Shown: positions 25,122 to 46,345, numbered from the stretch's first letter. The stretch is DNA of 64,000 bases from an uncultured Candidatus Saccharibacteria bacterium (GCA_963743435.1 CAVUPG010000004.1:176238-240237); one strand, 5' to 3'. The notes: generated by a model from the sequence alone, not told the origin. Numbers and translations are program-made.

Positions 25122-27534
25122 TCACCCACTTGGTACCGTTGTACTGGAGGAGTTGGTGGGTACTGGTGTCGAAGTAGAGCATGCCCTCGGTTGGAGAGCC
25201 AGGGCGTGAGGCAGTGGTGCCACCGGTAAAGGAGATGGTTTGGTTAGCGGCGACGACCGCACCAGCGTTTATGTTGACACTGTCATTGAGATTAATGGTC
25301 CCTGCCCCGTCGAGGACGATGTTACCACTCGTGGTGGTGGTAAGGTTGAGGTCACCACTGGTGACGTTGAGGGCTGCACTGAGGTTGGTGGAGGCGATGT
25401 TGCTGAGGCTTGTGTTAGCACCGCCTGCGCCACCACAACTTGTCCAACCTAGCACACCACTGCCGGATGTGTCTGACAGACAGTCACCAGAGCTACCGAG
25501 TGCTGTCGGGAGAGTCAACGCGTAGCTGGTGCTGGTGGCACCGGATTGGATGCTGACGGTGTTGGTATTAGCTGTATTATTGAAGACGATCTTGCCATTG
25601 ACGGCATTGGTGCCGCCATTGTAGTTACCGAGCTGAACTTCCCCATTGGTGGTATCAGCGTTGAATAGGTCGACGCCGTTGGCGTCTTGAATTGTGAAGC
25701 TATTGGTACTGCCATAATCGGTTGTCACGATTACGCCACCATTCGCACCTGCTCCAATTGGAGCCCCGCCCGATAATATTAAGTTACCTCCATTTGCATC
25801 ATTTGTTGGGGATAAGGATATAATCGAGTAATATTGAGGCCCGGTCGGGCTAGAGGTGAACGTCTGTGAGAGCGTACCGTTCGACCCACTGACGCTGTAG
25901 CCAATCATACCCCCGCTGCCGGTTGAGGCATTGTTCTGGGCTAAAACAGTACCTGTAGTGATACCCACAGTGTCATTATTTTGTCGAACTGCACCAGCGT
26001 ATAGGACGAGATCTCCTGAGCTTACATTTACCGGTCCAACGACCGTAGAAGCCGAGCCAGTAAACGATTGGTAGCCTATATGGTCATTCACAGCACCGAC
26101 ATCGTGCACCCCTATAATACCGACCTCCCCATAACCTGCGCCAGTAAACGTCACGGTCACGGAACCCCCTATGTCGCCCAGTGTCACCGTCTTGTAGTAC
26201 AGCGCACCACACATGCCTGCGCCACAAGTGTACTCAGGCCGAGTCCAACCCGCGGGAGTATTAATACCATTGTATTGCTCGACAGACATGACAAGCATAT
26301 CACCGACCGATAGACCAGTCGGGTAGCTCGCCACCATACTCGCTACGTTATTTACATGGGTAAGCGTGTGACCAACTATAGTAGGCGATCCTGTAGCAGT
26401 TGCATTACCGGCTCTGACGCTCAGGCTGCTCCCAGTGCCGCTGGTCGCATCCGCTACTGAAATCGTGTGCGGTGTATCACCGCCGAAAGTGACATCGCCA
26501 GCTGCATTTACATCATCATTGAGATTAATGGTCCCTGCCCCGTCGAGGACGATGTTACCACTCGTGGTGGTGGTAAGGTTGAGGTCACCACTGGTGACGT
26601 TGAGGGCGGCGCTGAGGTTGGTGCTAGCGATGTTGCTGAGGGAGGTGTTGGCTCCTGTAGAACCGCTACAGTTTGCGAGCGTGACGAGACACAGGGTGTC
26701 ACTCGTGCCAGCGAGGTCTGGGAGACTAACGGTACCATTACCCACCGTCTGTGCTGCAATACTCAGGCTCACCTTGTACGCATTGGTGCTGTTGAACAAG
26801 TCAATTGTTCCCGTGGTGGTGCTGGCGGTACCGACAGCCAAAGAGGAGCCGAAGATACCTTTGCCGGAGATGTTGAGGTTACCGGTCTGAGCAGTACCCG
26901 GTGTGCTGCCTTGGAGCTGGATGAAGCCAGCATTCGCTTCGTTCTCGGTGAGGAGATTGTAGCTGCCGGCTGCACCTTGATCACGGATCTGGAACGTCTG
27001 GTCACCGACGGTTGGAGCCTGTAGCGTGAGCGTCGAGCTCAGTGCACCACTCGTCGTGATGAGCTGACTCGCTGTCTTCGCATTGAACGCATACGGTACG
27101 GCGGTGAGGGAGAGGCGTGGGGACATCTCACCGTCCCATGAGTTGGAGGTGCCAGTACCACCGATGTCCATGGTGAGGTAGAGCTGCTGGTCCCATGGGA
27201 TGGTGGATGGGAAGCTGGTGATGGCACCGAGGTCAACGCTGAGGTAGCCGTTGGCAACTCTGACTCGGTTGTCAGGAGAGCCACCGTTGTAGTCACGGGT
27301 TTCAGTCCAGAGGAGGGTGCCACCAGTGGAGGCGTCGTAGAGCTTGAAGCGGACGTTGTAGTTGCCGTCTGGGGCGATCTGGCCGGCTCCCTTCTGGAGG
27401 CGGGCTTGGAAGTTCAGGGTGTCGTTGGTGGCAGCATACGCAGGCGTAGACACGCGCGTAAGGAAAAACAGGGGTAGGATGAGCAAGAACAAGACCGAGA
27501 TAGCGCGGGCCATGGTGAGGATACGACCAGACAT
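25096..27534 (-). CDS. giant fibre protein A, proximal part (signal peptide, conserved N-terminal domain, unique globular insert, stalk module)
   Basis: Start chosen at MSGRILTMARAISVLFLLILPLFFLTRVSTPAYA|ATND (GAGGGG SD 8 nt upstream). It ends artificially at WVSDRSPPPR*, where paralogues continue WVSDRSTATKIVAMGPTT... Confidence 0.8.
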   Translation of the reverse strand: MSGRILTMARAISVLFLLILPLFFLTRVSTPAYAATNDTLNFQARLQKGAGQIAPDGNYNVRFKLYDASTGGTLLWTETRDYNGGSPDNRVRVANGYLSVDLGAITSFPSTIPWDQQLYLTMDIGGTGTSNSWDGEMSPRLSLTAVPYAFNAKTASQLITTSGALSSTLTLQAPTVGDQTFQIRDQGAAGSYNLLTENEANAGFIQLQGSTPGTAQTGNLNISGKGIFGSSLAVGTASTTTGTIDLFNSTNAYKVSLSIAAQTVGNGTVSLPDLAGTSDTLCLVTLANCSGSTGANTSLSNIASTNLSAALNVTSGDLNLTTTTSGNIVLDGAGTINLNDDVNAAGDVTFGGDTPHTISVADATSGTGSSLSVRAGNATATGSPTIVGHTLTHVNNVASMVASYPTGLSVGDMLVMSVEQYNGINTPAGWTRPEYTCGAGMCGALYYKTVTLGDIGGSVTVTFTGAGYGEVGIIGVHDVGAVNDHIGYQSFTGSASTVVGPVNVSSGDLVLYAGAVRQNNDTVGITTGTVLAQNNASTGSGGMIGYSVSGSNGTLSQTFTSSPTGPQYYSIISLSPTNDANGGNLILSGGAPIGAGANGGVIVTTDYGSTNSFTIQDANGVDLFNADTTNGEVQLGNYNGGTNAVNGKIVFNNTANTNTVSIQSGATSTSYALTLPTALGSSGDCLSDTSGSGVLGWTSCGGAGGANTSLSNIASTNLSAALNVTSGDLNLTTTTSGNIVLDGAGTINLNDSVNINAGAVVAANQTISFTGGTTASRPGSPTEGMLYFDTSTHQLLQYNGTKWVSDRSPPPR

Positions 27535-27685
27535 GACGAGACCCCTCAAGTCGGGGTGACTGGGGGTATGACGAGGCGGTATGGGCGTATTGCCTGAGAG
27601 ACCTGGCATGTGTTTTTGGTTTGTTTGGTTTGGTTTTAAAGTTTTGGAAAGTTTGTGTGTGTATCGGTTTTGGTTTTGGTCGATA
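27071..27685 (-). repeat. shared 5' module, copy A (proximal leader + signal peptide + N-terminal domain)
   Basis: Near-identical by eye to 41664-42275. The coding part also matches 55331-55749. Confidence 0.8.
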
Positions 27686-28007: not shown

Positions 28008-28472
28008 TTATGGGTTTTGCGTGCCGAGTACCACGTAGTCAAACGCGTATGTTTGTCCGGCCTGCACCGTGTCATTCGAGACGATATCAAAGCCTGAGGC
28101 TGTCTTGACGACGTAGATGCGTAAGTTAGCGGCCTGGTCGTTCGATGCACTAGCGACGACCTTGTACGAGCTACCGTAGGCGTCTACAAAGCTAATGTGC
28201 GCGAGTACACCGCTCGCAACATTCTGCGCCCCAGCTGTTACCGTGACCGTGCCTGCTGCGTCAGTACCGTCATTGCTGATAGCAGGAGCGTTTGTACTCG
28301 TGCCCAGAACGCCCTGCCCCAGCGCGTCACCAGTGCTCACGGTCGGCGCTGCACCCTTAGTGACGATGTGGCCATTGACATAGATATCGCCTGTCTCGAG
28401 AGTGCCGGCTACCGTGACATTACCGCTCACACTCAAATTGCCGTTCACGATATTGATTGGCAAAGCTCGCAT
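28008..28472 (-). CDS. C-terminal domain of fibre C (fragment)
   Basis: 154-aa ORF ending the frame-broken fibre C. This C-terminus (…TYAFDYVVLGTQNP*) differs from that of fibres A and D. Confidence 0.6.
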   Translation of the reverse strand: MRALPINIVNGNLSVSGNVTVAGTLETGDIYVNGHIVTKGAAPTVSTGDALGQGVLGTSTNAPAISNDGTDAAGTVTVTAGAQNVASGVLAHISFVDAYGSSYKVVASASNDQAANLRIYVVKTASGFDIVSNDTVQAGQTYAFDYVVLGTQNP

Positions 28473-29715
28473 TGCCAGTCACATTGAGGTTGCTGATGCT
28501 AGGCTGTGCCGCTAATAGTGAGGTCAGTGCCCATGATTTGGTTTGCCACGCTCAGGTTCTGAGTCTGTAAGGTGTTGGTGTTATTTTTCTGGTCGTAGAA
28601 GCTGAAGAGTACTGATACCTTGGCTACCTTGACGCCGTTTGCGTCGTGGTCACCGTGCTCCAGTCGACTGGTGCGGCTGCCTTAGCGAACACATGGCTGA
28701 CAGCGAATGTGCCTGGGTCACGCTGTGCGTACCCACTAAGACTGCTTGAGATGAGCGGCTCACCAATCTTGACATTGCCCGTGCCATTGTCAGCGATCCA
28801 GACGTCGCCGTTACCAGCTGCAGCGACGAGCTACGGGTTGTCCAGCGAGTATGGTTGCGCGTTTCGCTCAGGCCATTGAATGAACCAAGTACATTCGTGT
28901 CGTTTTCTGTGGCAGTCTGCACAATGCCATAGATAGGCTCGTTGCTGCCGGCCTTGTAGGCATTATCTCCGGTCAGCGATACAAGTTTGCCAGCGGCTAG
29001 ATGGGCCAATCAATCTTCGCATAGTGCGAGCCGGTAAAAGCATTGTAACTGACCGTACCCGAGGCAACACTAATTGTACCGATCGTCGTGTTGTCTCGCC
29101 TGAACGCAGAGCCAGACCGTCGTCCGTAGACCGATCGATACGTGTAGAGGGTTCGAGGCGTGCTCGGACAACAGAGTGGTCGAACTTAGCCGACGGCGCC
29201 ATTTGGCCGATGGAGACGCGGTTACTGCTATTGATAGACGATCGCAGATTAGAAGTCCCGCCAACGCCAAACTAGAGCTCGCATTTGCATTAGTGTTCAC
29301 ATTATTGATATATGTCTGGTTTGGCCGGTTGAACTTTAGTCAGCCCCTGAAATCTGCGTGTAGCAGTTGTCGCTACCGGAACAAGTTGCGTCACGGCGTT
29401 CCCGATCTGCAGCATCCGTTCGTGGTGTCAACAGTCAGGACAGCAAGGCCACTGGCATTTTGCACAAGGAGCGAGCTCGTGACTGTTAGCAGTTGGAGCG
29501 AGCGTGAGCCTCCATTTGCCAGTGTCGCTGAGTCGGCCCCTGCCTGCAGCGGCGGTAGTTGAACTTGGTGCGTTGACCCAATCGTCACCGTATCTGCAGC
29601 TGTCGCATTCGTGGCGATATTGATCGAATTTGCGGCACTATTTCCACTCCACCAATGTTAATTGTGCTGTCAAGCGCTGTGTTACCGAGATTCACATTGC
29701 CATTACTATTGATGT
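28473..29715 (-). pseudogene. fibre C segment shattered into at least 5 frame pieces
   Basis: Short minus-strand ORFs 28650..29009, 28963..29202, 29070..29300 and 29391..29588 carry fibre-type sequence (e.g. LLVQNASGLAVLTVDTTNG) in alternating frames. Confidence 0.55.
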
Positions 29716-32700
29716 CTACCAGTGACTGGCCCCCGACACTACTTGCCAGATACATTGGGTAATTATTCGTGCCACCCGTGATATTTTGTGCGTAGTAGCC
29801 ATACAGATTTGTTGCGAGCCGTTCGCAAGTGGGCGTGCCATGAAGTCGTAGGCGTTTGTCACCGTCGATGCAAAGTCGAACTGGCCCATGACACCGACGG
29901 CGTTCTGGATAGAACCGGATCCACTTGCGGTGCCAACCTTGCCGATAGTGCCGACCACGTATCCAGTGTTTGACGTGTTGGATGCGCCACTCCAGTTGAC
30001 CTGGTTAACACTGCCGAAAACATCCCCGGTGAACGTTGTGCCCGTAGCACCAGGGGAAGCGAGAAGCAGATTCCCAAAATGGCCCCCTGCGCTTGAGCCA
30101 CCCGGGTTAAAGGTGGTGCTCAAGGTGTTGCCTGGCTGTAGACCCCCACCATTGTTCTGGTTTGTCTGCAGCGAGAACCCTGCTCCGCCATTAGTACCTG
30201 TAGCCTGAATCGAAACGTTCGTATTGTTTGCGGTAATGCTACTAGCCCCACCACGGATGACTGTGCTCGAACCGGAATGGGTAGAACCTATTGTGACGGT
30301 ATCGGCAGCCGTCGCATTAGTGGCGATATTGATGGTGTTGGCTGCGCTATTAGAGACACCCCCGATATCTATCGTAGTAGCGACTGTCGTATCACCAATC
30401 TTAATGCCTCCCGAACCAGAGTTGATCACAACACTTGTCGCACCTGTCGTGTTACCTATGGTAATCGTCTTGGCGTTTGCACCGGTACCGATATTCAGCG
30501 CTCCCGTTGTACCAGAGTCGACAAGGAGTGCCGTGGCCGTGGCTGATTGGAATACGGGTGCGGTAAAGCTCGTCGTCGCACGGCCATCACCGCTTATCCA
30601 GAAATTCGATGTACTCTGCGCGCTACTATTTTGGTTTCGTATGTAGCTTGTATCTGCTGTTGTCGTAGTTAGCAGCGTCCCGCTCACATTCGGCAGTGTC
30701 CACGTACGGTTAGCCGTTAGGTCAGCGTTGGTGATGGTGCCAGTGAAGCGACCTGCTCCACCTGCCGTGACTGCAACGGCGATGAGGTCGTCCGTGGCGG
30801 TCGAGGTGTCTACCGTGAGCGTACGGATGGTTGCACCACCCTGGAAGCTCGAAGCTGTGGTGGTGGTTGCACCACGACCAGTGACCGTAGCAAGGGTGTC
30901 GGCTTCGGCACTGAGACCACAACTACCCCATTGGATGCTGGTTGTGGTGCTGGTGAGACATTGACCGTTGGTACCACGAGCCAGACGAGTACTGTTGGTA
31001 CCGTTGTTGTAGAGGAGGTCACCATTGGTCGTGAGCTGAGAGAGGTTGTTGATGGCGCTTTGGCTGGTGGTGGCACCAGTGCCACCATTGGCTATGGGCA
31101 CTGCTGGTGGTGCCGGGACGCCACCAGCGGTGTTGGTGACGATGCCAGCGGTACTCAGGCCAGTTATAGTCACCGTCTTCCCCGCTGCCACAACCGTATT
31201 TTGGTTGAGGTTGATGCTGGTGGCATTGGTGGTGCCGATGTTGAGGGCGGCGGCAGACGCAGTGTCGACCAAAGACGCTAAGAGATTTGTTGTTCGAGTC
31301 GTACCTGACACGTCGAGATCGTATTGAGGGTTAACGGTACCGATGCCGACCTTGCCGGCCCCGCTCAACTGCAGCCCTGCGTAGTTGATGTAGTAGTGTC
31401 GACCACTAGCTGTAAACCCGACACTTGAAGAGACAGTAATGTGGGTAGCGCCAGTGTACCCGGTTATTGTACCGACGTATGGCGCAGTTGAGGTCGATGC
31501 TGAATCGATGTAGATAGTGTTGCCTACCATACCAGCGCTAAAGCTTGTCCCCGTACCTACGATAGCGCCAGAAGCGTTTGTGGTCGCGACGGTACCAGCA
31601 CTGGTGCGGTAGGCCTCTGCAGATAGTTGGTTCAACGGGGCACCCGTGCCGATACCAACTTTTACGGAGTCTACGCCCTGACCACCAAGCGCGATAGTAT
31701 TCGACTGGAAGACCTGTGCGTAGGCACCGATGGCGGTGGTGTTTTGCAGATTATTTACGGACTCGAAGTACGAGCCAGAGTCCCAGCCGCCTGCAGCATA
31801 ACCGATGGCAGTGTTGTGGCTACCCGTCGTGTTGTTGAACCCAGAGTAGGCACCAAAGCCCGCGTTACCGCTACCTGTAGTATTTGAGTAAAGTGCCTCT
31901 TCGCCAAACCCTGCATTTTCGTCACCGCTTACATTGCCCTGCAAAGCCCAGCTACCTGTGGCCACGTTGTAATAACCGGTTGAGTTTTGAGAGAGCGATT
32001 GAGAACCAACAGCAATGTTCCAGCCTCCGCTCGTGTTATTGAGGAGCGCAATCTCGCCAATCGCAACGTTTTGCGAACCGGTCGTGTTGTGAAGCAGTGT
32101 CGATGGCCCAACTGCCGTGTTACGATTACCGGTTGTAACGCTCTGGAGAGCGTTAAGTCCGATACCGACGTTGTCGTAGCTACTGCTCTGAGCATTTTGG
32201 AGTGCGCCCGTACCAAAGCCCAAGTTGCCGTTGTACGCGCGTATCTCGGCACCCGTCGCACCAGTGCTGTCTTTGATTACGATTGGGGCAGAAGCAATAC
32301 TTGAGACGGGCTTGATACTCAGAATGGTGATTGAGCCTGTCTGTGCGCTATCCACACCGACCGCAAAGCTTGCCGTCGTAGTCGCGGTTAATAACTGGCT
32401 CTTTGACGTGGTGTTGCCGAAGATATAGATACCTGTCGCTCCGCCCAGTTTTGGCCAGAATGCGTATCCACTTGTCGTACCTGTCGTCGTGTATTTGACC
32501 TCATATGTCGTACCGGCAGTGATGCTTGGGCTTGTACAAGTAAGCACTGTATTGGAGCCGGCTGTGTGCGTCCATACATTGGTGCCGGTATCTGTCCAGT
32601 TAGTACCAGTACAGGTGTTGTTATCAGCTCCGAAGACATCCGATCCCACCGTGGCATTATCGTACTTATTCTGGAAGCTGGTCTGCTGGGTAGAAGCATC

Positions 32701-32880
32701 GACGTTGAAAAACGTCGTCCCACCTGTCGTCGCAACACTCAGTGCATTTGCGTAGTCACTCGTAATCTTGATGCCTCGATTTGAGGTATCGATAGTGAGA
32801 ATATCTGCAGTACCTGCAGCATTCTGTATCTTGAGAGCGGTAGTTGAGTCAGCTAATGGACGAATCGTTGGCGTATACAC
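29716..32880 (-). CDS. fibre C fragment (1054 aa): stalk and tail-fibre-like modules
   Basis: Begins mid-motif ([19 protein letters not shown], internal in fibre A). Contains ...[32 protein letters not shown]... and Gly/Thr/Ser/Asn-rich repeats. Confidence 0.75.
30677..31249 (-). repeat. about 0.57-kb intragenic repeat, copy 1 (ANGGTGATT / [18 protein letters not shown] module)
   Basis: Near-identical by eye to 35170-35742 and 37373-37870. The ORF track shows nearly identical spurious antisense ORFs at all three sites. Confidence 0.85.
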
Positions 32881-33176
32881 TGCCGTGCCGAAATAACCAT
32901 TGCGCCAGGTGATGGCAGCGCTACCAAGATCGTCGGTGTTGGTGGTGTCAGATATGAGGCTGGTGTTGATAGCGACGCTCGCGAGGTTGTGAAAGCGGTA
33001 TTAGCACCACCCGCACCACCACAGGTCGTCCAGCCGAGCACGCCTGTACCGGTGGTGTCGTAGAGACACTGGCCTGAGCTACCAAGACCGGTCGGGAGGG
33101 TGAGATTGTAGCTAGCGCTCGTGGCGCCAGACTGGATACCGACGGTGTTTACGTTGGAAGCAATTATTGAAGACAA
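32853..33176 (-). CDS. fibre C fragment (stalk unit [14 protein letters not shown]...[10 protein letters not shown])
   Basis: 107-aa ORF. It is continuous in sequence logic with 33112..33696 upstream and 29716..32880 downstream, but in another frame. Confidence 0.6.
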
Positions 33177-33696
33177 TCTTGCCGTTGACTGGATTGGTGC
33201 CGCCGTTGTAGTTGCCGAGCTCTATTTGGCCTGAGGTGGTATTGGCATTGAAGACGTTTACACCATTGCCGTTTTGGATGGATACTGCTGCAGATGAAGC
33301 GGCTTGTTTGAAGCGGATGTCGGTGCCACCGGCGGTCATAGCCTGACCGGCATAGATAGTGTTAGTGCCGGCGTCACTGATGCTTGTCGCCCCCGTACCA
33401 GAGAAGGTGTTGCCGGAGAGGTATGTGCCGCTCGTACCAGTCGCATTTACCTGGATGGCGTAGCCTGTACCGGCTGTATCTGTGATGGTGTTACCGTGCA
33501 CTACAACATTGGCGGCGTATTGGTCGATGAGGATAGAGCTGGACGCTCCAGTGCCACCGTTGTTGTACAGGGTGTTATCACTAACGTTGGTGTCGTCAGA
33601 ATGGTAGGCCGATGAGCCGTTAACCCGGATACCCTCTGCGGTGTTGCTGCTGGCGGTGTTGCTGGTGATGAGCGCACGGTAGCGAGCCGTAGACAT
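33112..33696 (-). CDS. fibre C fragment (end of beta-helix domain 2 + stalk unit)
   Basis: Contains NTITDTAGTGYAIQVNATGTSGTYLSGNTFSGTGATSISDAGTNTIYAGQAMTAGGTDIRFKQ, paralogous to fibre D at about 52450-52700. Confidence 0.65.
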   Translation of the reverse strand: MSTARYRALITSNTASSNTAEGIRVNGSSAYHSDDTNVSDNTLYNNGGTGASSSILIDQYAANVVVHGNTITDTAGTGYAIQVNATGTSGTYLSGNTFSGTGATSISDAGTNTIYAGQAMTAGGTDIRFKQAASSAAVSIQNGNGVNVFNANTTSGQIELGNYNGGTNPVNGKIVFNNCFQRKHRRYPVWRHER

Positions 33697-33776
33697 AGAA
33701 GCCTTACCCGGTGTTCGAGACGGCCTTGTTACCAGTCACGACCACATCGTCCGCGTAGGCGATGTCGAAGCCACCA

Positions 33777-34304
33777 CTACCGTTGCCCGTCGCGGTGTTG
33801 CCTGTGACGCGCATGCCGACATCGGAGTCGATGTAGAAACCGTAGCTGTAGGCGTTGTTGCTGCGATGTTGTCAGACACGACATTGCGAGCGCCGTTAAT
33901 GTAGAAACCGGTGCCGCCAGTGTTGGTAGCAGTGTTATCACTGACAACATTGTCGGTACCGAATATCTCCATACCATCACCACCTGCAAGGTTGCTGATA
34001 GTGTTACCTGTAATTGTGTTAAAGGAGAGCCGGAATAGAGATTAATACCGCCACCGCCTGAGTTAATGATGGTGTTGCCTGCAATGTAGTTGTGATCTCC
34101 GGCAGTAATGTCGATCGAATCATATGGAATACGTGTAATTTGCAGGCGAGTCACAGAAGCGCCCGCACGAGAGGCAGATTCGCTGCCCATGTTGGTCAAG
34201 TTAATACCCGTGCCCGTAGCACTGTTGCGATCAGTTCGCCCATCGAGTTTAAGGTCACGAATCGTAACACCTGTTCCAGTGGTCTGATCGGTGTTCACAA
34301 TCAT
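33777..34304 (-). CDS. fibre C fragment (beta-helix domain 2, N-terminal turns)
   Basis: Contains TIRDLKLDGRTDRNSATGTGINLTNMGSESASRAGASVTRLQITR, paralogous to fibre D at about 53250-53420. The reading frame decays towards the 3' end. Confidence 0.6.
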   Translation of the reverse strand: MIVNTDQTTGTGVTIRDLKLDGRTDRNSATGTGINLTNMGSESASRAGASVTRLQITRIPYDSIDITAGDHNYIAGNTIINSGGGGINLYSGSPLTQLQVTLSATLQVVMVWRYSVPTMLSVITLLPTLAAPVSTLTALAMSCLTTSQQQRLQLRFLHRLRCRHARHRQHRDGQR

Positions 34305-34903
34305 GGTAATCCCCGTGCCATGGTGCCGAAGTTACCGAGCTGGATGATGGTACTGTTACCGCTACCAGCGAGTGTGACGTTGTTCGGGATGGAGATGCTG
34401 CCGTCTATGGTGTAGGTGCCTTCGGTGAGGTAGACGGTGCCACCACCAGCTGCAGCGGCAGCAGTTAGGGCATTGTTTATTTCTATTTGGTCACCGTCGA
34501 GGGTACCGATGCCACTGCCAGAGCTGTCTTCGCCATTGGCGACGTACTGCGCACCATCCTTGGCTGCTTGTGAGCTGTTGCTGGCGGCGACGATGAAGGT
34601 AGCAGCTTTGCTATCGCTCTGCCATTTGCCATTGCTGTAGGTGAGGAGTTGTTTGGTGGTGGTGTCGAAGTACATAGTACCCTCAGATGGTGAGCCTGGA
34701 CGGTTGGCGGTGGGAGCCCCAACAAAGCGGATTGTCTGCGCGGCAGCTACCGTCGCACCGGCGTTAATGTTAACTGAGTCATTCAGGTTTATTGATCCCG
34801 CGCCATCCAGCACGATATTGCCGGAAGTGGTTGTGGTGAGGTTGAGATCCCCGTTAGTGACATTGAGGGCAGCACTGAGGTTAGTGCTAGAGATGTTGCT
34901 CAA
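34301..34903 (-). CDS. fibre C fragment (stalk module + start of beta-helix domain 2)
   Basis: Contains ...NRPGSPSEGTMYFDTTTKQLLTYSNGKWQSDSKAATFIVAAS...GGGTVYLTEGTYTIDGSISIPNNVTLAGSG, highly similar to fibre D. Confidence 0.7.
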   Translation of the reverse strand: MSNISSTNLSAALNVTNGDLNLTTTTSGNIVLDGAGSINLNDSVNINAGATVAAAQTIRFVGAPTANRPGSPSEGTMYFDTTTKQLLTYSNGKWQSDSKAATFIVAASNSSQAAKDGAQYVANGEDSSGSGIGTLDGDQIEINNALTAAAAAGGGTVYLTEGTYTIDGSISIPNNVTLAGSGNSTIIQLGNFGTMARGLP

Positions 34904-35001
34904 GCTCGTATTGGCCCCACCGGCCGCCGCACTACAACTACTCCAGATAGGTGCAGCACCGACGCCGTTGGAGACAAGACATGAGCCAGCAGCGACTGCT
35001 G

Positions 35002-38000
35002 TTAGTTTGCCGAGGGAGCTTGCCCCGTGGCGTATAGCAAGTCCCCAGTGGTGTAACTACTGAGACCAGTGCCTCCGTACGCCGCACCGATAGCCGTACC
35101 CTGCCAAGTACCACTCGTGATAGTGCCCGTGCAGGTAATGCTGTTGAGGTTACCAGTCGTGATGACTGTGCCGCTCACATTCGGCAATGTCCACGTACGG
35201 TTAGCTGTTAGATCAGCGTTGGTGATGGTGCCAGTAAATCTGCTAGCCCCGCCAGCAGCCACTGCAACGGCGATGAGGTCGTCCGTCGCGGTTGAGGTGT
35301 CTACCGTGAGAGTACGGATGGTTGCACCACCCTGGAAGCTCGAAGCTGTGGTGGTGGTTGCACCACGACCAGTGACCGTAGCAAGGGTGTCGGCTTCGGC
35401 ACTGAGACCACAACTACCCCATTGGATGCTGGTTGTGGTGCTGGTGAGACATTGACCGTTGGTACCACGAGCCAGACGAGTACTGTTGGTACCGTTGTTG
35501 TAGAGGAGGTCACCATTGGTCGTGAGCTGAGAGAGGTTGTTGATGGCGCCTTGGCTGGTGGTGGCACCAGTGCCACCATTGGCGACTGGGACACTGCTGG
35601 TGGTGCCGAGGACACCACCAGCGGTGTTGGTAACGATGCCAGCGGTGGAGAGGCCAGTTATAGTCACCGTCTTCCCCGCTGCCACAACCGTATTTTGGTT
35701 GAGGTTGATGCTGGTGGCGTTGGTGGTGCCGATGTTGAGGGCGACGGCAGAGTTTGTATCAATCGTCGGAGTTATAATGCTAGTACCGAAGTAACCGCTA
35801 CGCCACGACGTACCACTTGTACCGATGTCCAAGCTATTAGACGCGTTGGCTGTAAGCGTCTGGTTGACGCTAGTACTCGTCAGATTGGACAGGCTGGTGT
35901 TAGCCCCGCCAGGTCCACTTGTGGTTATACAGTCAGTCCACGCACCATTCTCATAGCAACGAAGCTTGTTCGTACTGGTGTTGTAGTACATCGCGCCGTT
36001 ATAACCGGCTGGATCAGAGCCGCCATTATAGCTGTCGAGTATGAGTAGTGTGGCATTCGCATCTGTTACGGCATTGCCCACTTGAACTATCTTGTTTGTG
36101 GTGTCCACAGTGAGCTGTCCTAAGCCGGATGTATTTTGCACAGCGAGAGCGACCGTGCTATTTAGCTTAGTTAACACACCGCCGCTGTTAGGATTGACGG
36201 TGAACACATCTGTTCCACCGTTTTGCACGGCGAAGCGGCCACCGCTGGCGCTACAAGTTGTACATTGGAGGTTGAAAACCATACTTGCGTCAGTGGTTGT
36301 ATCGGCAAATGTAAAGGCCACATCACGGCTATCGGTAGTCGTGATGGTATTGCCAGCAGTATAAGCATCGTTCAGGGTGACTGCACCACCACTACCTGAG
36401 CCATTATTACAGTTATAGAAACCGAGCTGCCCGGAGCCATTTGTTTTGAGACACTGCAGACTACTGCCGTCCGCTGTCGGGAACAAGAAGGTTAGGTTGC
36501 TGCTTGATGCACCGGCCTTCAGCGTAGTCGTGTAGCCACCACCACTTTGCAAGACTAAGCTTCCCTGCAAACTCGCCGTACCGACCGTCACACTAGCGCC
36601 CTGAACCGCAAGAGTGCTCGAGCCGTTAATTGTCACCGTGCTCCCATCGTCACTGATTGAGGAGTCTGTGATAGCCTGGGAAGCGCTAAATTTCGCGATA
36701 CGATTTGTCGTGCCGCCAGAGGTTGAAACACCCCCACCAGAGCCAACACAGTTGCCTACCGTCGTACAGATGGTGTAGCTGCCGGCCGCCACGGAGCGAT
36801 CAAAGTTGTAGCTGACGTTGCCCACAGGAGCCCCGCTAAACCCAATCGTCGTAGTACCACCTCCGCCATTAGCTGTGATGGTACTACCCCCAGTCCCTTG
36901 CAGAACGAAGACTTGCGAAGTTGAGCCGGCTGTCAGGGTACCGCTCGGCGTGATGGTGAGTGACGTATTGCTCTGCAACAGCGGCGTGTTGACGGAGGTT
37001 CCAAAGTAGCCAGCACGCCAGGTGGTAGAGCTGGTGCCAATGTCACGAGTATTGTTTGCGTCGGCGACGAGGTTTTGGTTGATACTTGTCGCGGTCAAGT
37101 TGCTAAGTGACGTATTCGCACCCCCCGCTGCCGCACTACAACTACTCCAGATAGGCGCAGCACCGACACCGTTCGAGACGAGACATGAGCCGGCTGCGAC
37201 AGCGGTGAGTTTACTGAGCGTGCTCGTCCCGCTGGCGTAGAGAAGATCTCCGGCAGTGTAACTGGTTAAGCCGGTACCACCGTATCCGACACCAATGGCT
37301 GTACCCTGCCAGGTACCACTCGTGATGGTACCAGTGCTGGTGATGCTGTTGAGGTTACCAGTCGTAATGACCGTCCCGCTCACATTCGGCAGTGTCCACG
37401 TACGGTTAGCCGTTAGGTCAGCGTTGGTGATGGTGCCAGTGAAGCGACCTGCTCCACCTGCCGTGACTGCAACGGCGATGAGGTCGTCTGTGGCGGTTGA
37501 GGTGTCTACCGTGAGCGTACGGATGGTTGCACCACCCTGGAAGCTCGAAGCTGTGGTGGTGGTTGCACCACGACCAGTGACCGTAGCAAGGGTGTCGGCT
37601 TCGGCACTGAGACCACAACTACCCCATTGGATGCTGGTTGTGGTGCTGGTGAGACATTGACCGTTGGTACCACGAGCCAGACGAGTACTGTTGGTACCGT
37701 TGTTGTAGAGGAGGTCACCATTGGTCGTGAGCTGAGAGAGGTTGTTGATGGCGCCTTGGCTGGTGGTGGCACCAGTGCCACCATTGGCGACTGGGACACT
37801 GCTGGTGGTGCCGAGGACACCACCAGCGGTGTTGGTAACGATGCCAGCGGTGGAGAGGCCAGAGAACGTGATGGTGCCGGAGCTAGTTATGGCAGTACCG
37901 CCGGAGATAGCACCTGCGCTGGTAATACCGCCATTGTTGTTGTTGAGGCCACCGGTGATTGACGCTCCTCCTGCAGAAACTGTCAGTGCGGCACTGCTGG

Positions 38001-39582
38001 TGACGCCGTTTTGGAAGGTCTTGAGACCACCAATGGTTTGAGCGGCACTCGTCAATACACCGCCATTGGTGCCGTTTGCTGCCGTCAGGTTCAGTGTGTT
38101 GCCAGTGATGGTTGCACCGTTGGCGTTGGCTGTGCCAGAGATGGCTCCGACGGTGGTGGCGCCACTCCCTGCTCCGTCAATGTTCGCTGGAGCCCAAGCC
38201 GTGCCGTTCCATATGTAGGCCTGACTCTTCGATATTGGAATCGTGACGCCATACATCGTGAAGCTATTGCTTCCACCGACATTATTTATATAGACAAGTC
38301 GCCCGCCAGTCGCAGTTGTCGGGGTCGGCAGCGTAAATGTCAAACCACCCGCAGTAGCGGTTATATTGAAAGTCGTATATACGTCTACCGTAGAAGCAGC
38401 CGCACCCACCGCCCCTGAACTACCAAGACTCAGTGGTTGTGCACTGAGTAATGTGTAGCCAGTGTTTGTTAGACCAGCGGTCGTGACGGTCGTAAAGTTC
38501 GGGGTGGCAGACACCGCAAGCGTCAGGCTGCCGCCAAGCGAAACCGTACCACCACCCGTAATGTTGCTGCCATTATTGATTGTGATGCTGCTGTTCACGA
38601 GATTAGCATTCGCTACGGTAGCGTTTGCGATATTACCGCCGGTAATAGTGGCGCTCGCGATTTGGGTTGTCGTTATCGTGGCGTTGGCAATGTTTGATGC
38701 AGTGATGGTCGTAGCCGCGATGTTGCTGCCCGTTACCGTCGAGGTAGCCAGGTCAGTACCTGTGACCGTGCCGTCGGATATTGACGTACTGTTGACTGCT
38801 CCAGTCGCTATCTTGCCATTTGTAATAGCACTATTCGCGATAGTGAATGTATTGGTGCTACCAGAGACACTATTTGTCAGATCACCTGCACTCGTGCCAT
38901 TCACCCAGTTGGTGCCGTTATAGACGAGCATTTGGTTCGTTGCAAGACCCGAGACGCTGACATTTGCGCCGCCGATACTACCGGCTGGGCATGTACCCCA
39001 GCTCGGCGCCGCAGCGGTCGTAGCGAGTAGACACTGACCGGTTGAGCCGGCTGCAGTCGAAGCAATCTTGCTGCCATCGTAGTAGTTCACCCCATTGGTC
39101 GTGTAGGTCGTGTTGTTGGTGCCACCATTAGCAATCGGCAGCGTGGCGACTGTGCCCAATACGCCCCCTGCGGTGTTAGTGACGATACCAGCCGTGCTGA
39201 GGCCCGATACCGAAATCGTGCCGGCGAGTGTCGTTGTCACACCCGTTTTGCCAATGGTGATAGCATTGGCGTTACTCGTCCCAATGGACAAAGCGCCGGC
39301 GCTCACTGTGTCAAAGGCTGGCCCATACACCGCCGTGCCAAAGTAGCCATTGCGCCAGGTGATACCCGAGCTACCGAGGTCATCAGTGTTGGTTGTGTCA
39401 GAGATGAGGCTGGTGTTAATAGCGACGCTGGCGAGGTTATCGAGGGCGTGTGGCTCCGCCACCACCACCGCCGCCACAGCTGGTGAAGCCGAGGACACCA
39501 GTGCCAGTCGTGTCGACGAGACAGTCGCCGGAGCTCCCGAGCCCAGTCGGAAGGGTGAGGTTGTAGCTGGTGCTAGTCGCAC
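35002..39582 (-). CDS. fibre C fragment (1526 aa): long Gly/Thr/Ser/Asn/Ala fibre with two copies of the tail-fibre-like module
   Basis: Largest intact piece. Its first ~45 codons are out-of-frame read-through. The 3' break sits at a G4 run (ACGGGGCAAGC, about 35010-35020), after which SSLGKLTAVAAGSCLVSNG... continues in another frame. Confidence 0.75.
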   Translation of the reverse strand: MRLAPATTSPFRLGSGAPATVSSTRLALVSSASPAVAAVVVAEPHALDNLASVAINTSLISDTTNTDDLGSSGITWRNGYFGTAVYGPAFDTVSAGALSIGTSNANAITIGKTGVTTTLAGTISVSGLSTAGIVTNTAGGVLGTVATLPIANGGTNNTTYTTNGVNYYDGSKIASTAAGSTGQCLLATTAAAPSWGTCPAGSIGGANVSVSGLATNQMLVYNGTNWVNGTSAGDLTNSVSGSTNTFTIANSAITNGKIATGAVNSTSISDGTVTGTDLATSTVTGSNIAATTITASNIANATITTTQIASATITGGNIANATVANANLVNSSITINNGSNITGGGTVSLGGSLTLAVSATPNFTTVTTAGLTNTGYTLLSAQPLSLGSSGAVGAAASTVDVYTTFNITATAGGLTFTLPTPTTATGGRLVYINNVGGSNSFTMYGVTIPISKSQAYIWNGTAWAPANIDGAGSGATTVGAISGTANANGATITGNTLNLTAANGTNGGVLTSAAQTIGGLKTFQNGVTSSAALTVSAGGASITGGLNNNNGGITSAGAISGGTAITSSGTITFSGLSTAGIVTNTAGGVLGTTSSVPVANGGTGATTSQGAINNLSQLTTNGDLLYNNGTNSTRLARGTNGQCLTSTTTSIQWGSCGLSAEADTLATVTGRGATTTTASSFQGGATIRTLTVDTSTATDDLIAVAVTAGGAGRFTGTITNADLTANRTWTLPNVSGTVITTGNLNSITSTGTITSGTWQGTAIGVGYGGTGLTSYTAGDLLYASGTSTLSKLTAVAAGSCLVSNGVGAAPIWSSCSAAAGGANTSLSNLTATSINQNLVADANNTRDIGTSSTTWRAGYFGTSVNTPLLQSNTSLTITPSGTLTAGSTSQVFVLQGTGGSTITANGGGGTTTIGFSGAPVGNVSYNFDRSVAAGSYTICTTVGNCVGSGGGVSTSGGTTNRIAKFSASQAITDSSISDDGSTVTINGSSTLAVQGASVTVGTASLQGSLVLQSGGGYTTTLKAGASSSNLTFLFPTADGSSLQCLKTNGSGQLGFYNCNNGSGSGGAVTLNDAYTAGNTITTTDSRDVAFTFADTTTDASMVFNLQCTTCSASGGRFAVQNGGTDVFTVNPNSGGVLTKLNSTVALAVQNTSGLGQLTVDTTNKIVQVGNAVTDANATLLILDSYNGGSDPAGYNGAMYYNTSTNKLRCYENGAWTDCITTSGPGGANTSLSNLTSTSVNQTLTANASNSLDIGTSGTSWRSGYFGTSIITPTIDTNSAVALNIGTTNATSINLNQNTVVAAGKTVTITGLSTAGIVTNTAGGVLGTTSSVPVANGGTGATTSQGAINNLSQLTTNGDLLYNNGTNSTRLARGTNGQCLTSTTTSIQWGSCGLSAEADTLATVTGRGATTTTASSFQGGATIRTLTVDTSTATDDLIAVAVAAGGASRFTGTITNADLTANRTWTLPNVSGTVITTGNLNSITCTGTITSGTWQGTAIGAAYGGTGLSSYTTGDLLYATGQAPSAN
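35170..35742 (-). repeat. about 0.57-kb intragenic repeat, copy 2
   Basis: See 30677-31249. Confidence 0.85.
37373..37870 (-). repeat. about 0.5-kb intragenic repeat, copy 3
   Basis: See 30677-31249. Homology ends at ...gatgccagcggtggagaggcc. Confidence 0.85.
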
Positions 39583-40045
39583 CAGATTGGAGCCCTACCG
39601 TATTGGCATTAGTACTATTATTAAAGCTTATTTTGCCGTTGACTGCGTTGGTCCCACCATTGTAGTTGCCGAACTGGATTTCCCCATTGGTGGTATCTGC
39701 GTTGAAGAGGTTAACCCCGTTCGCATTTTGGATAGTAAATGCAGATGTACTGCTCGTCTGGCTGTAACGAATATCCTTGCCGTTTGCGCTCATCGCTTGA
39801 CCATTGTAGATAGTCGTGGAGCTGAGATTTAGGCTACTGGAACCTGTACCAGAGAATATGTTGCCAAACACGATTGTATTGATGACATTCCCGCCAGTAC
39901 CCTTTATCGCGTAGCCACTGCCGGCGGTATCAGTGATCCGGTTATTGGAAATCTGGTTGCCTGTTGCGCCGCCAGTACCCCTAAATTCGATAGCACTCCA
40001 GCTGCTAGTACCACCGTTGTCGTACAAGTTATTGCCTGACACCAA
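39437..40045 (-). CDS. fibre C fragment (end of beta-helix domain 1 + stalk unit)
   Basis: Contains NRITDTAGSGYAIKG...GQAMSANGKDIRYSQ...[35 protein letters not shown], then a frame break inside or next to the Gly-codon run at about 39455-39480. Confidence 0.65.
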   Translation of the reverse strand: MVSGNNLYDNGGTSSWSAIEFRGTGGATGNQISNNRITDTAGSGYAIKGTGGNVINTIVFGNIFSGTGSSSLNLSSTTIYNGQAMSANGKDIRYSQTSSTSAFTIQNANGVNLFNADTTNGEIQFGNYNGGTNAVNGKISFNNSTNANTVGLQSGATSTSYNLTLPTGLGSSGDCLVDTTGTGVLGFTSCGGGGGGGATRPR

Positions 40046-40197
40046 GTTATAGTTAACGCCCTGGAACTGGATGACCTCTGAGTCGCATTGCCTGTCAGGG
40101 TGTTATCCGTAACTTTAGAGTAGTTACCGTACAGCTGGATACCCGTATCGGAGTTGCCTGATACATAGTTGCCATTGACGTCATTGTAGCTATTCAT
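39904..40197 (-). CDS. fibre C fragment (beta-helix turns)
   Basis: Contains NGNYVSGNSDTGIQLYGNYSKVTDNTLTGNA. Short piece between two frame breaks. Confidence 0.5.
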   Translation of the reverse strand: MNSYNDVNGNYVSGNSDTGIQLYGNYSKVTDNTLTGNATQRSSSSRALTITWCQAITCTTTVVLAAGVLSNLGVLAAQQATRFPITGSLIPPAVATR

Positions 40198-40205
40198 ACG
40201 AATAC

Positions 40206-42128
40206 CTATCGAGCCGTTGCCTGAAACAATGTTATTCGAGATTGTCGTACTTTATCTCCAGCTAATATACCCATATTGCCATTCGAGCTTACCGTGTTGC
40301 CACTAATAAGTAGGCCGCTAGTCGAGCTGCTGTCGATACCTCTACTTGAGTTTGAGGTGACAGTGTTGTTGACTATTTTTGCGTTGGGTGCACCCTTAAT
40401 GTATAGGCCAGAGTTATTTGTCACGCCTTTGATTGTGCTATTCTCTATCGTGCTTGAGTTAAAGTTATTGGCGTACACTGCCACGCTCCGCGTGTTTTGA
40501 ATGGTTATATCGGAAATAATCACGCCCGGCGTGCTCGTGACATTCGTGTATATACCTTGGTGGTTTGCACTACCGTTGTTCGCGGCATTACCATCCAACA
40601 TCATGTTAGTGATTTTCACCCCGGCCGAGCTGGTAGTGACCATGTTTATCGTAGCTGTGCTGTCGGCGATAATCAGCTTTGTGCCGACACCGGAGCCAGT
40701 AAACGTCACATTGGCCGGGATGGTTATCGCACCGTCAATCACATACGTCCCCTCCATCAAGTACACAGTACCACCGCTAGCTGGGAGGGCTGCAATGGCT
40801 GCATTTATGGTGGTCTGGGCACTGGTACAGCTGCTGGCAACATAGTCAGCACCGTCGTAGTTCTGTGAAGCAGTTGGGGTGGTACCAGTACAACCAGTGG
40901 TTGGGCCCATGGCGACAATCTTGGTGGCGGTAGAGCGATCACTCACCCACTTGGTGCCGTTGTACTGGAGGAGTTGGTGAGTACTGGTGTCGAAGTAGAG
41001 CATACCCTCAGTTGGTGAAACAGGGCGAGAGGCGGTGTTGCCGCCGGTGAAGGAGATAGTCTGGTTGGCACCGAGGACAGCACCAGCGTTGATGTTGACG
41101 CTGTCATTGAGGTTAATGGTCCCTGCCCCGTCGAGGACGATGTTGCCACTCGTGGTGGTGGTAAGGTTGAGGTCACCACTGGTGACGTTGAGGGCTGCAC
41201 TGAGGTTGGTGGAGGCGATGTTGCTGAGGCTTGTGTTAGCACCGCCACCACCTCCTCCGGTACAGTTGGCGAGCGTGACCAGACAGAAGGTGTCGCTCGT
41301 ACCGGCTAGATCTGGAAGACTGACGGTACCATTCGCAACCGTCTGCGCAGCAATGTTTAGACTCACCTTGTACGCACTGGCGCTGTTGAACAAATCGATT
41401 GTTCCGGTTGTGGTACTAGCCGTACCGACGGCTAATGAGGACCCAAAGATTCCTTTGCCGGAGATGTTCAGGTTACCCGTTTGGGCGGTGCCCGGGGTGC
41501 TGCCTTGGAGTTGGATGTAGGCACCATTGGCAGCTGCGCCGGTCAGGAGCGTGTAGGTACCAGCGGCGCCCTGGTCCGGGATGACGAAGGTCTGGTCACC
41601 GACAGTTGGAGCTTGGATGCTGAGGGTTGAGCTCAGTGCACCACTGGTGGTGACGAGCTGTGAGGCTGTCTTCGCATTGAACGCATACGGTACGGCGGTG
41701 AGGGAGAGGCGTGGGGACATCTCACCGTCCCATGAGTTGGAGGTGCCAGTACCACCGATGTCCATGGTGAGGTAGAGCTGTTGGTCCCATGGGATGGTGG
41801 ATGGGAAGCTGGTGATGGCACCGAGGTCAACGCTGAGGTAGCCGTTGGCAACTCTGACTCGGTTGTCAGGAGCACCACCGTTGTAGTCACGGGTTTCAGT
41901 CCAGAGGAGAGAGCCACCAGTGGAGGCGTCGTAGAGCTTGAAGCGGACGTTGTAGTTGCCGTCTGGGGCGATCTGACCTGCTCCCTTCTGGAGGCGGGCT
42001 TGGAAGTTCAGGGTGTCGTTGGTGGCAGCATACGCAGGCGTAGACACGCGCGTAAGGAAAAACAGGGGTAGGATGAGCAAGAACAAGACCGAGATAGCAC
42101 GGGCCATGGTGAGGATACGACCAGACAT
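40206..42128 (-). CDS. fibre C, N-terminal fragment: signal peptide, conserved N-terminal domain, stalk module, beta-helix domain 1
   Basis: Same MSGRILTMARAISVLF... start and SD as fibre A. It continues WVSDRSTATKIVAMGPTTGCTGT...AIAALPASGGTVYLMEGTYVIDG without a break, which shows how the fibre A junction should read. Confidence 0.8.
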   Translation of the reverse strand: MSGRILTMARAISVLFLLILPLFFLTRVSTPAYAATNDTLNFQARLQKGAGQIAPDGNYNVRFKLYDASTGGSLLWTETRDYNGGAPDNRVRVANGYLSVDLGAITSFPSTIPWDQQLYLTMDIGGTGTSNSWDGEMSPRLSLTAVPYAFNAKTASQLVTTSGALSSTLSIQAPTVGDQTFVIPDQGAAGTYTLLTGAAANGAYIQLQGSTPGTAQTGNLNISGKGIFGSSLAVGTASTTTGTIDLFNSASAYKVSLNIAAQTVANGTVSLPDLAGTSDTFCLVTLANCTGGGGGGANTSLSNIASTNLSAALNVTSGDLNLTTTTSGNIVLDGAGTINLNDSVNINAGAVLGANQTISFTGGNTASRPVSPTEGMLYFDTSTHQLLQYNGTKWVSDRSTATKIVAMGPTTGCTGTTPTASQNYDGADYVASSCTSAQTTINAAIAALPASGGTVYLMEGTYVIDGAITIPANVTFTGSGVGTKLIIADSTATINMVTTSSAGVKITNMMLDGNAANNGSANHQGIYTNVTSTPGVIISDITIQNTRSVAVYANNFNSSTIENSTIKGVTNNSGLYIKGAPNAKIVNNTVTSNSSRGIDSSSTSGLLISGNTVSSNGNMGILAGDKVRQSRITLFQATAR

Positions 42129-42275
42129 GACGAGACCCCTCAAGTCGGGGTGACTGGGGGTATGACGAGGCGGTATGGGCGTATTGCCTGAGAGACCTGG
42201 CATGTTTGAGTTTTGGGTTTTGGTTTAGTTTTTGAAAATGTTTGTTTGTATCGGTGTTTTGGGTTTGATTGATAC
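41664..42275 (-). repeat. shared 5' module, copy C
   Basis: See 27071-27685. Confidence 0.8.
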
Positions 42276-45284: not shown

Positions 45285-45523
45285 ACTTGAGGTAGCGAAC
45301 TGACTGATACTGCCGTCACTGACGTTAATCTTGGCATAGAGGAGGTCATTGAGTGACCCGCCCTCAGAGACGTTAAGCCCGCGAGCGCATAGAGATAGCC
45401 GTTGTAGCCAAAGGCAGACCCACGCCGACGGACCGGGTTCAATTCGACCGGTACATCATCGCCATTGCCTTTGATGCCATACGGGCCCCGCGTCGCTGGC
45501 AGATATCCACGCGCTGCCACCAT
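45281..45523 (-). CDS. Kelch-like protein fragment
   Basis: Contains YNGYLYALAG. Short piece between frame breaks. Confidence 0.45.
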   Translation of the reverse strand: MVAARGYLPATRGPYGIKGNGDDVPVELNPVRRRGSAFGYNGYLYALAGLTSLRAGHSMTSSMPRLTSVTAVSVSSLPQV

Positions 45524-46052
45524 CTGCCGCCACGATGTTGTTAGAATTATCTATCTTGGCGTACAGCACCTCGCCACGCTCACCCTCGTTCGGGCTCTGG
45601 CCGCCGATGAGATAGATGTAGTTGGCATAGACCGTACCGGCTGCTACCCCGAGACCCTGCGTGCCAGCGGTTGTTTCTGAGTCAATCTGGAGTTGTCCGC
45701 TCGTCGTACAGGTGCTACCCGATGTTTCTAGCGATCCGTCAGTCTTAATATAGCACTTATACACTTCTGTGTAGAGCGTACCTGTGCAGTCGAGGCCGTT
45801 ATCTGCCGCCGTGACACCGCTACAGCCACCGAGCACATAGAGATTCCCTGGGTATGTACCAGCCGATGACGGATTTGCCCGGGTAAACGCGTACTGGTAT
45901 CCCTTAGCGTTACCGAGCCCTACATTGCCAAATGTCTGAGTGGACCACGATCCCCAGGTACCATCGCTATTAAAGGTCGACCCGCATAACCGTATCTTGC
46001 CACTGCGTACCTGTCGTTCCACCGATGATGTACATGGTGTTGTTAAACACAC
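45456..46052 (-). CDS. Kelch-like protein fragment
   Basis: Contains GNLYVLGGCSGVTAADNGLDC and ANYIYLIGGQ. Confidence 0.6.
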   Translation of the reverse strand: MCLTTPCTSSVERQVRSGKIRLCGSTFNSDGTWGSWSTQTFGNVGLGNAKGYQYAFTRANPSSAGTYPGNLYVLGGCSGVTAADNGLDCTGTLYTEVYKCYIKTDGSLETSGSTCTTSGQLQIDSETTAGTQGLGVAAGTVYANYIYLIGGQSPNEGERGEVLYAKIDNSNNIVAADGGSAWISASDAGPVWHQRQWR

Positions 46053-46299
46053 TATACCCGAATGCGGAAATTTTGTCTGGCATCGATCCGCTGCCGTTTA
46101 TCGCGCACCAACTACCTACGAAACTGCCTGAGCAGCTCGAAATTCGTGTGATGTGTCCTGCGGAATCGATAGCAGCATATGCGATGTTGTCGGTCGACTT
46201 CCCAGAGTTACCTGTGAAACACACACTATTATTCCCAACTGCCGTGCAGCCCCCGATGTAGTAAATGTAGCCATTGTTGATTATGGCACCCCCGGACAT
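45970..46299 (-). CDS. Kelch-like protein fragment
   Basis: Contains NNGYIYYIGGCTAVGNNSVC and NNTMYIIGGT. Confidence 0.55.
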   Translation of the reverse strand: MSGGAIINNGYIYYIGGCTAVGNNSVCFTGNSGKSTDNIAYAAIDSAGHITRISSCSGSFVGSWCAINGSGSMPDKISAFGYSVFNNTMYIIGGTTGTQWQDTVMRVDL

Positions 46300-46345
46300 A
46301 CCCCCCGCCTGGCCGTTACCATCCCCCTGTGGTGGCAGGTCGCAG

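Follow-up and report, generated by a model that had tools for sequence, protein, structure and literature searches.

The 64,000-nt window analyzed here, a stretch of the assembly of a small, parasitic, uncultured Candidatus Saccharibacteria bacterium (GCA_963743435.1 CAVUPG010000004.1:176238-240237), contains a locus of genes for long β-helix fibres. One of these, which we call fibre C, is broken into many short open reading frames (ORFs) on the minus strand. We show that these pieces constitute a single gene of ~4,700 codons, since sister strains have open frames of 1838, 478 and 2766 aa that match them colinearly, and since the pieces possess between them just one leader and one conserved C-terminal module. 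The initial annotation, which had taken the region for one gene of about 4700 codons, is thereby borne out. This gene probably specifies a ~4,700-residue secreted surface fibre and is probably intact in the living organism. We further judge it probable that its frame breaks are mostly, or even entirely, errors of the assembly consensus and not the outcome of decay, in which case the finding is largely one of assembly quality.

Fibre C is a single, colinear gene

The minus-strand stop-to-stop ORFs of the region overlap as a chain from 42224 to 28011, with the frame shifting repeatedly along it. Its largest pieces are of 672 aa (42224-40209), 1530 aa (39594-35005) and 1094 aa (33000-29719), the rest being many short ones. 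Read as a unit, the gene runs colinearly on the minus strand from an ATG at 42203, or from 42128, which is the window equivalent of the start called in the sister-strain contig L069, to 28011, with the stop codon at 28010-28008; this amounts to ~4,710-4,730 codons. When the paralogous fibres A (49135-56028), B (18981-25121) and D (25096-27609) are used as tblastn queries, their alignments pass between frames in fibre C, and protein-to-DNA alignments that allow frameshifts do likewise. Because these alignments run on across the frames, the breaks cut sequence that is continuous in the paralogues, just as had been proposed from the DNA at the outset.

The N-terminal domain occurs once in fibre C, where tblastn recovers residues 1-384 of fibre D at 90% identity and residues 29-297 of fibre A at 72%, and the C-terminal module likewise occurs once. 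In a relative from the same genus (G007), the gene start matches 42305-41274 and the last 146 residues match 28451-28014 at 69%. Other relatives in the genus have open frames of the fibre family of 1,860-2,867 aa, and a match to the family is present in 10 of the 27 other genomes of the genus. A search of the remaining contigs of the same genome for a second, intact copy of fibre C found none, and an Rfam scan of the window returned nothing.

The lesions fall into three clusters

The lesions were listed with a custom protein-to-DNA aligner that allows frameshifts, guided by the paralogues and by database homologues. A codon-usage dynamic programme also gave at least 20 frameshifts; it took wrong frames and evaded stops (a false pair at 38421/38308 inside an open frame and a junk frame at 29640-29430), and the homology-guided alignment was therefore used instead. 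In this alignment, fibre C has at least 22 frame-changing single bases, two in-frame stops and one compensated triple deletion. Hence, the fragmentation described in the initial annotation is real, while its count of at least 15 pieces was too low. At the junctions aligned to homologues, zero residues have been lost.

The three clusters lie at 40253-39448, 35026-32989 and 29816-28445, with clean stretches of 4.4 and 3.2 kb between them. In cluster 1, one base is absent at ~40253-40251, one at ~40086-40048 and two singles at 39449/39448. Cluster 2 has absent bases at 35026 (A), 34321 (T), 34025 (G), 33860 (C) and 32989 (G), surplus bases at 33680 (A) and 33161 (a G before CTT), and a TAA stop at 33706-33704, where the sister-strain contig L068 has TCA and fibre A has Pro. 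In cluster 3, bases are absent at 29816-29806, 29645, 29418, ~29390, 29339, 29278-29259, 29108-29104, 29009, 28863-28860 and 28648-28642 and surplus near 28500 and at 28458-28448; its TAG stop at 28833-28831 corresponds to CAG in L068, to Tyr in the sister protein P0016 and to Tyr or His in other homologues. The compensated change consists of three single-base deletions within 21 nt (31115/31098/31094) in the third copy of a 0.5-kb repeat, and replaces LGTTSS with PAPPA while the frame stays open.

Three breaks had been singled out beforehand as examples. That placed at ~39460 is the one at 39449/39448, where two single bases are absent relative to L068. The one at ~35015 was located correctly (35026), with the amendment that the absent base is an A ahead of a G4 run and not a G of the run itself (CAC-GGGG versus CACAGGGG in L068). 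The third, after GGANTAF, is a real break whose true position is 32989, ~120 nt away from the ~32870 given for it.

Every frame-changing lesion in fibre C is a single base, and no multi-base deletion was seen among them. Alignment of the window with L068 contains 98 gaps, 86 of them single-base and split 45 and 41 between the two assemblies; where the context is well aligned, 31 of 39 single-base gaps affect a base outside any homopolymer. Of the 12 missing bases of fibre C that could be resolved against L068 in such context, eight lie in no run and four in 2-base runs, with CACC-ATGG versus CACCTATGG as an example outside runs in addition to the one at the G4 run. Spontaneous single-base indels of bacteria concentrate in homopolymer runs, as mutation-accumulation work has established, and scattered indels away from runs are what long-read consensus error typically leaves. 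With the missing bases mostly outside homopolymers, this is not the pattern of replication slippage. Slippage, multi-base deletions and a proportionate number of nonsense codons, which would make up a natural indel spectrum, are thus not what fibre C displays.

Sister strains read through the breaks and have others of their own

Exact look-up of the pieces in a large protein collection, in which their 90% clusters include longer ENA metagenome proteins as well, led to the sister proteins. P0022 (1838 aa) and P0019 (478 aa) are encoded on contig_84624 (L068; 20,066 nt) and P0016 (2766 aa) on contig_84625 (L069; 19,457 nt), both of ENA ERZ25039549. P0022 is open over all eight lesions of cluster 2. 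P0016 is open from a β-helix module via the second stalk and the entire tail to …FDYVVLGTQNP, and P0019 is also open over the tail. It follows that the pieces form one frame in close relatives and that the lesions of the window are private to it. L068 in turn has its own, different frameshifts elsewhere in the fibre C gene. The Kelch-repeat gene upstream of fibre C (43482-46732, minus strand) behaves alike: L069 has it as a single frame of 1069 aa or more, the window copy is frameshifted twice, near 46370 and near 45981, and L068 has three frameshifts that differ from these. The assemblies of close relatives are, then, free of the breaks seen here and have different ones of their own.

L068 and the window are syntenic over window positions 46729-25080, with 95-96% identity. 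Divergence between the two is uneven, with many 500-nt bins at 0-0.4% mismatches and others at 8-17%. The first β-helix module (window 41338-39675) is absent from L068, and L069 is a different mosaic, along which fibres A, B, D and C alternate as the best match. These differences in module content, along with the switching of divergence, suggest that co-occurring strains often recombine their fibre modules.

Frameshifts occur across the assembly

The assembly comprises 947 kb in 8 contigs, with a completeness of 86%. We compared it with the whole genome of its nearest relative (G010; 84% identity in IleRS) by using the ORFs of the latter as tblastn queries. Across 278 kb of orthologous coding DNA, 55 frameshift junctions were found in conserved genes, or 0.19 per kb. 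The affected genes include rpoB (5 breaks), atpA (2), atpD (2), serS, groEL, glyA, alaS, tsf, parA and ileS. Hence, lesions of the type seen in fibre C also occur in essential single-copy genes of this assembly, and with this number of essential genes affected in a minimal genome, the breaks there cannot be of biological origin. Fibres D and B likewise look like a single ~2,880-codon gene on the minus strand, split near 25100 (25060-25200) by one or two frameshifts directly after …YNGTKWVSD; the first ~50 residues called for B are out-of-frame junk. On the whole, the assembly has the look of one built from metagenomic long reads without polishing or with too little coverage.

Two breaks in atpD and one each in atpA, ileS and fibre C (C4:18463, 19367 and 22207; window 59987 and 33161) have a surplus base just ahead of CTT(G/C), which is a G wherever its placement is possible. 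The fibre C instance turns AATT-CTTCC into AATTGCTTCC, the same mark as the insertions in atpA, atpD and ileS. By hand count, GCTTG/CAAGC is enriched near the breaks of housekeeping genes. The recurrent extra base has the appearance of a systematic error of base calling or consensus building, perhaps linked to a modified motif; in fibre C, the mark is present at only one or two of the breaks.

In parA (window 12824-13586), the frame is broken between …NALTASK and GVLIPVQAEYFALEGL. A frameshift at ~3183 separates the N-terminal domain of EF-Ts (tsf) from its core, and the one at ~59987 leaves the first ~31 codons of ileS in a different frame. The ileS gene is also in two pieces (residues 32-438 and 442-917) in another genome of the genus, a closed one consisting of a single contig (G003:C1:672295-674986). 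Long-read genomes elsewhere in the genus may contain frameshift errors as well.

The broken parts show no relaxation of constraint

Codon-wise comparison with L068 was used to obtain the ratio of non-synonymous to synonymous divergence (dN/dS) of the broken parts. It is 0.12 for the tail at 29800-28011 (133 synonymous and 63 non-synonymous differences, dS 0.41) and 0.22 for the broken β-helix (24 synonymous and 16 non-synonymous differences). For comparison, the open 1530-aa piece and the Kelch flank both give 0.13 and fibre D 0.09. The values of the broken parts are about the same as those of their intact neighbours and so give no sign of relaxed constraint in the most damaged parts. Comparing the dN/dS of the pieces with that of orthologues had been put forward earlier as a way of detecting decay, and the relaxed selection that decay would entail is not seen.

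Consensus error, decay and other explanations

The initial annotation had left a choice between consensus indels and a decaying paralogue. Both survive, and we favour consensus indels on account of the errors in essential genes, the loss of single bases off homopolymers, the CTT mark, the open sister frames, the breaks peculiar to L068, the dN/dS values, the uneven spread of the breaks along the gene and the compensated triple deletion hidden in an open piece. Several observations weigh against this. Fibre C has at least 21 breaks versus 2.8 expected in 14.2 kb at the rate of the conserved genes, a ~7-fold excess over the genome-wide rate (Poisson P = 4e-12; P = 9e-7 under a negative binomial fitted to 17 blocks of conserved coding DNA). 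The excess is more than 10-fold over the adjacent paralogues, and fibres A, B and D together with a 1515-aa gene (~20 kb of similar composition) have just 1-2 breaks. The lesion density is thus out of line with the assembly and an added local cause is needed. Genome-wide errors are barely clustered, with 9 of the 55 having a neighbour within 600 nt, near the Poisson expectation; a general clustering of errors therefore does not explain fibre C. A sliding scan of ORF length for other such “dirty islands” was too crude, its output being dominated by rRNA and small-gene operons. The indel spectrum also differs, with 15 deletions to 6 insertions in fibre C against 19 to 36 genome-wide (Fisher p = 0.005), and bacterial mutation is generally deletion-biased. 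The two nonsense codons are each one substitution from the L068 sense codon (TCA to TAA and CAG to TAG), and conserved genes seldom carry in-frame stops. In the broken β-helix, amino-acid changes on the fibre C branch exceed those on the fibre A branch by 24:7, 30:14 or 27:17, depending on the outgroup, a modest excess that could stem from decay or from substitution errors. Neither MutS (PF00488) nor MutL (PF01119) domains were found in the 86%-complete assembly, and real single-base indels could hence be unusually frequent in the lineage. The call of artefact is itself drawn from assembled sequences. The excess density, the deletion bias and the missing MutS and MutL keep a true pseudogene in play, namely a very recent one, in which one of three redundant fibres would have been inactivated, with a few assembly errors on top, and the sisters left intact. 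The patchiness of the family in the genus implies that its gain and loss are common. Nonetheless, we regard such a pseudogene as unlikely. Even decay would be due after the first frameshift (~40253), yet 7.6 kb are break-free and the tail has 9 breaks per kb; clean stretches of the observed lengths are improbable under evenly placed lesions (simulation P = 1e-4), and a gene decaying neutrally and uniformly beyond its first frameshift cannot yield this pattern. The constraint on the broken parts, the restriction of the lesions to single bases, mostly outside homopolymers, and the mere two nonsense codons beside 22 or more frameshifts also argue against it, as do lesions of the same type in rpoB, atpA, atpD and serS and the different breaks of L068 in fibre C and the Kelch gene. 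A shade more doubtful still is the specific scenario in which the strain would just have lost one of its three host-attachment fibres through a sudden wave of deletions, each of one base outside homopolymers, its lineage being devoid of MutS and MutL.

The region could also consist of several independently expressed genes or be a silent archive of cassettes of the vls or pilS type, feeding fibres A and B/D by gene conversion. Its mosaic of modules, whose nucleotide identity to their counterparts in A, B and D is 76-97%, as well as the shuffled module order in the sister strains, with L069 mixing A-, B-, D- and C-like stretches, would be in keeping with such an archive. Yet the breaks lie inside motifs and not at module borders, and fibre C is colinear with the long open frames of L068 and L069. 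Moreover, in place of the promoterless partial copies without a leader that define silent archives, it comes with a leader, a signal peptide and an N-terminal domain of its own, plus a single C-terminal module. Internal promoters, which the initial annotation had named as a sign of several genes, show no excess either: promoter-like sites inside fibre C number 6 against 11.2 expected and terminator-like sites 14 against 14.6, in a check that covered these two kinds of sites and left aside starts and Shine-Dalgarno sequences. Accordingly, we hold this explanation to be very improbable. Still further down in likelihood, to the point of being negligible, is a regulatory role of the breaks through programmed ribosomal frameshifting or phase-variable contingency tracts. 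Nothing specific speaks for it, apart from a few breaks that adjoin short G or A runs. The more than 20 sites have no common slippery motif, those resolved against L068 are never in a run of more than 2 bases, the sister strains read through, and two of the sites are plain stop codons. The base contexts hence offer neither a slippery heptamer nor a long homopolymer or repeat tract.

If consensus error is indeed responsible, the local cause might lie in the strain structure of the population. Co-occurring strains of one species would carry module-shuffled alleles of the fibre locus, and their strain-specific stretches would receive fewer and partly mis-recruited reads, resulting in a poorer consensus there, while stretches common to the strains would stay clean. 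An error-prone consensus of this kind could then yield the 22 or more frameshifts and the two stops. In nanopore assemblies, lower coverage has been found to go with a higher indel frequency (PMC9262707). This account of the clustering through coverage and strains is a conjecture, and it has to contend with the divergent bins at 37000-36000, which have no break in the window, and with the fact that the strain co-occurrence is that of a metagenome (ERZ25039549) which may stem from another sample than this genome.

Modular architecture of fibre C

The features of fibre C are collected in Table 1. The order of its parts from the N-terminus is the leader and signal peptide, the N-terminal domain of A and D, the first β-helix module, the long repeat-bearing stalk, the second β-helix module, the second stalk and the C-terminal module. 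Piece 1 (40206-42203) matches the Pfam models PF13229 at 35.6 bits (cut-off 25.9), PF05048 at 34.0 (23.6) and PF12708 at 36.8 (27). P0022, which spans the second, broken module in the sister strain, matches PF13229 at 54.7 bits. With matches of hidden Markov models above the curated cut-offs, fibre C is a right-handed parallel β-helix protein.

Searches with the frame-corrected tail as the query recovered 15 homologous proteins, with a top identity of 56%. Six of these, which were retrieved and aligned, are intact proteins ending in the same ~370-aa module, and fibre C retains 71 of the 79 columns invariant among them. The module (SYNAFTGSHY…AAGNGDVW…FDYVVLG) is colinear over ~370 aa, which places fibre C in this C-terminal module family, and it stands intact at the end of many otherwise unrelated fibre-like proteins. 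In the locus itself, tblastn found no match to this module in fibres A, B or D.

Table 1. Features of the fibre C gene in window coordinates
Feature	Coordinates	Strand	Evidence
Fibre C, giant secreted fibre gene	28011..42203	minus	Frame chain; colinearity with P0022 and P0019 (L068) and P0016 (L069)
Leader, signal peptide (…AISVLFLLILPLFFLT…AYA/AT) and N-terminal domain common to D and A; unbroken	41052..42203	minus	tblastn, translation
First β-helix module with break cluster 1	39440..41300	minus	Pfam Beta_helix, NosD and Pect-lyase on piece 1; alignments; gaps versus L068
Stalk segment, open over 1530 codons; holds 2 of 3 near-identical 0.5-kb repeats	35040..39440	minus	dN/dS versus L068 0.13
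Second β-helix module with break cluster 2	32989..35026	minus	Alignments to fibres A and B; gaps versus L068; P0022 open throughout
Second stalk segment, open over 1094 codons, with the compensated triple deletion	29816..32988	minus	Frame chain, gaps versus L068
Break cluster 3, ~9 breaks per kb	28445..29816	minus	Three-frame reading; alignments to intact homologues P0001-P0003 and others; P0016 and P0019 read through
Conserved C-terminal module (…SYNAFTGSHYAKID…AAGNGDVWIADNGTGNV…SHVFAKAA…FDYVVLG)	28011..29110	minus	Homologue search, alignment

Significance and comparison with known systems

For annotation, the fragments should be treated as one ~4,700-codon gene, larger than any other at the fibre locus, and neither as 15-25 small ORFs nor as genome decay. 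In this assembly, which serves as a species representative, conserved genes have a frameshift roughly every 5 kb, and surface genes that vary between strains have many more. At such an error rate, calls of pseudogenes, small ORFs or gene loss made on it need read support. Swapped, added and missing fibre modules in co-occurring strains fit a role in host attachment under diversifying pressure. Should the breaks be real after all, they could represent the ordinary recent loss of a redundant paralogue; alternatively, they could reflect an unusual local mutational process or a rapid on/off turnover of attachment fibres among co-occurring strains.

The fragmentation resembles the frameshift artefacts of long-read metagenomes (nanopore and PacBio continuous long reads), for which the IDEEL test provides a measure and programs like proovframe a correction (PMC9262707; bioRxiv 10.1101/2021.08.23.457338). 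The points of likeness are the genome-wide splitting of genes, essential ones included, the 86% completeness and the differing breaks of the sister strains. It is unlike them in that the fibre C errors are mostly off homopolymers and unusually dense in one gene. Since the fragmentation matches this known artefact and fibre C is a paralogue of neighbouring fibres, the shattering is most probably not a biological feature.

Within the locus, fibre C belongs with fibres A (2297 aa) and D+B (27609-18981, ~2,880 aa when joined), all of which have a common N-terminal part followed by shuffled modules in one reading unit. It shares with them the leader, signal peptide, N-terminal domain, PF13229/PF05048 modules and a linker motif. 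Fibre C is ~1.6-2 times longer and is distinguished by two long stalks, three 0.5-kb repeats and a C-terminal module of its own. It is thus a further, larger paralogue of the β-helix fibres of this locus.

Beyond the locus, the PF13229 modules recall phage tailspikes and tail fibres, which combine a right-handed β-helix with a C-terminal chaperone or tip, and a homologue of the C-terminal module (P0008) has a precomputed PF13884 domain; a Pfam search for the S74 domain in P0016, P0019 and P0022 did not find it. Unlike the phage proteins, fibre C is cellular and has a signal peptide, and it is flanked by Kelch-repeat proteins, more fibre genes, ileS and parAB. An analogy may also be drawn with the mosaic adhesive trimer (MAT) proteins, the chimeric fibre proteins of Bdellovibrio bacteriovorus (Caulton et al. 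2024, PMC10769870). These, too, form a family of long, secreted fibres that agree in their N-terminal part and vary through shuffling of the modules distal to it, and their bearer likewise attaches to other bacteria. Fibre C is much longer than the MAT fibres and differs from them in its β-helix modules of the tailspike or pectate-lyase type.

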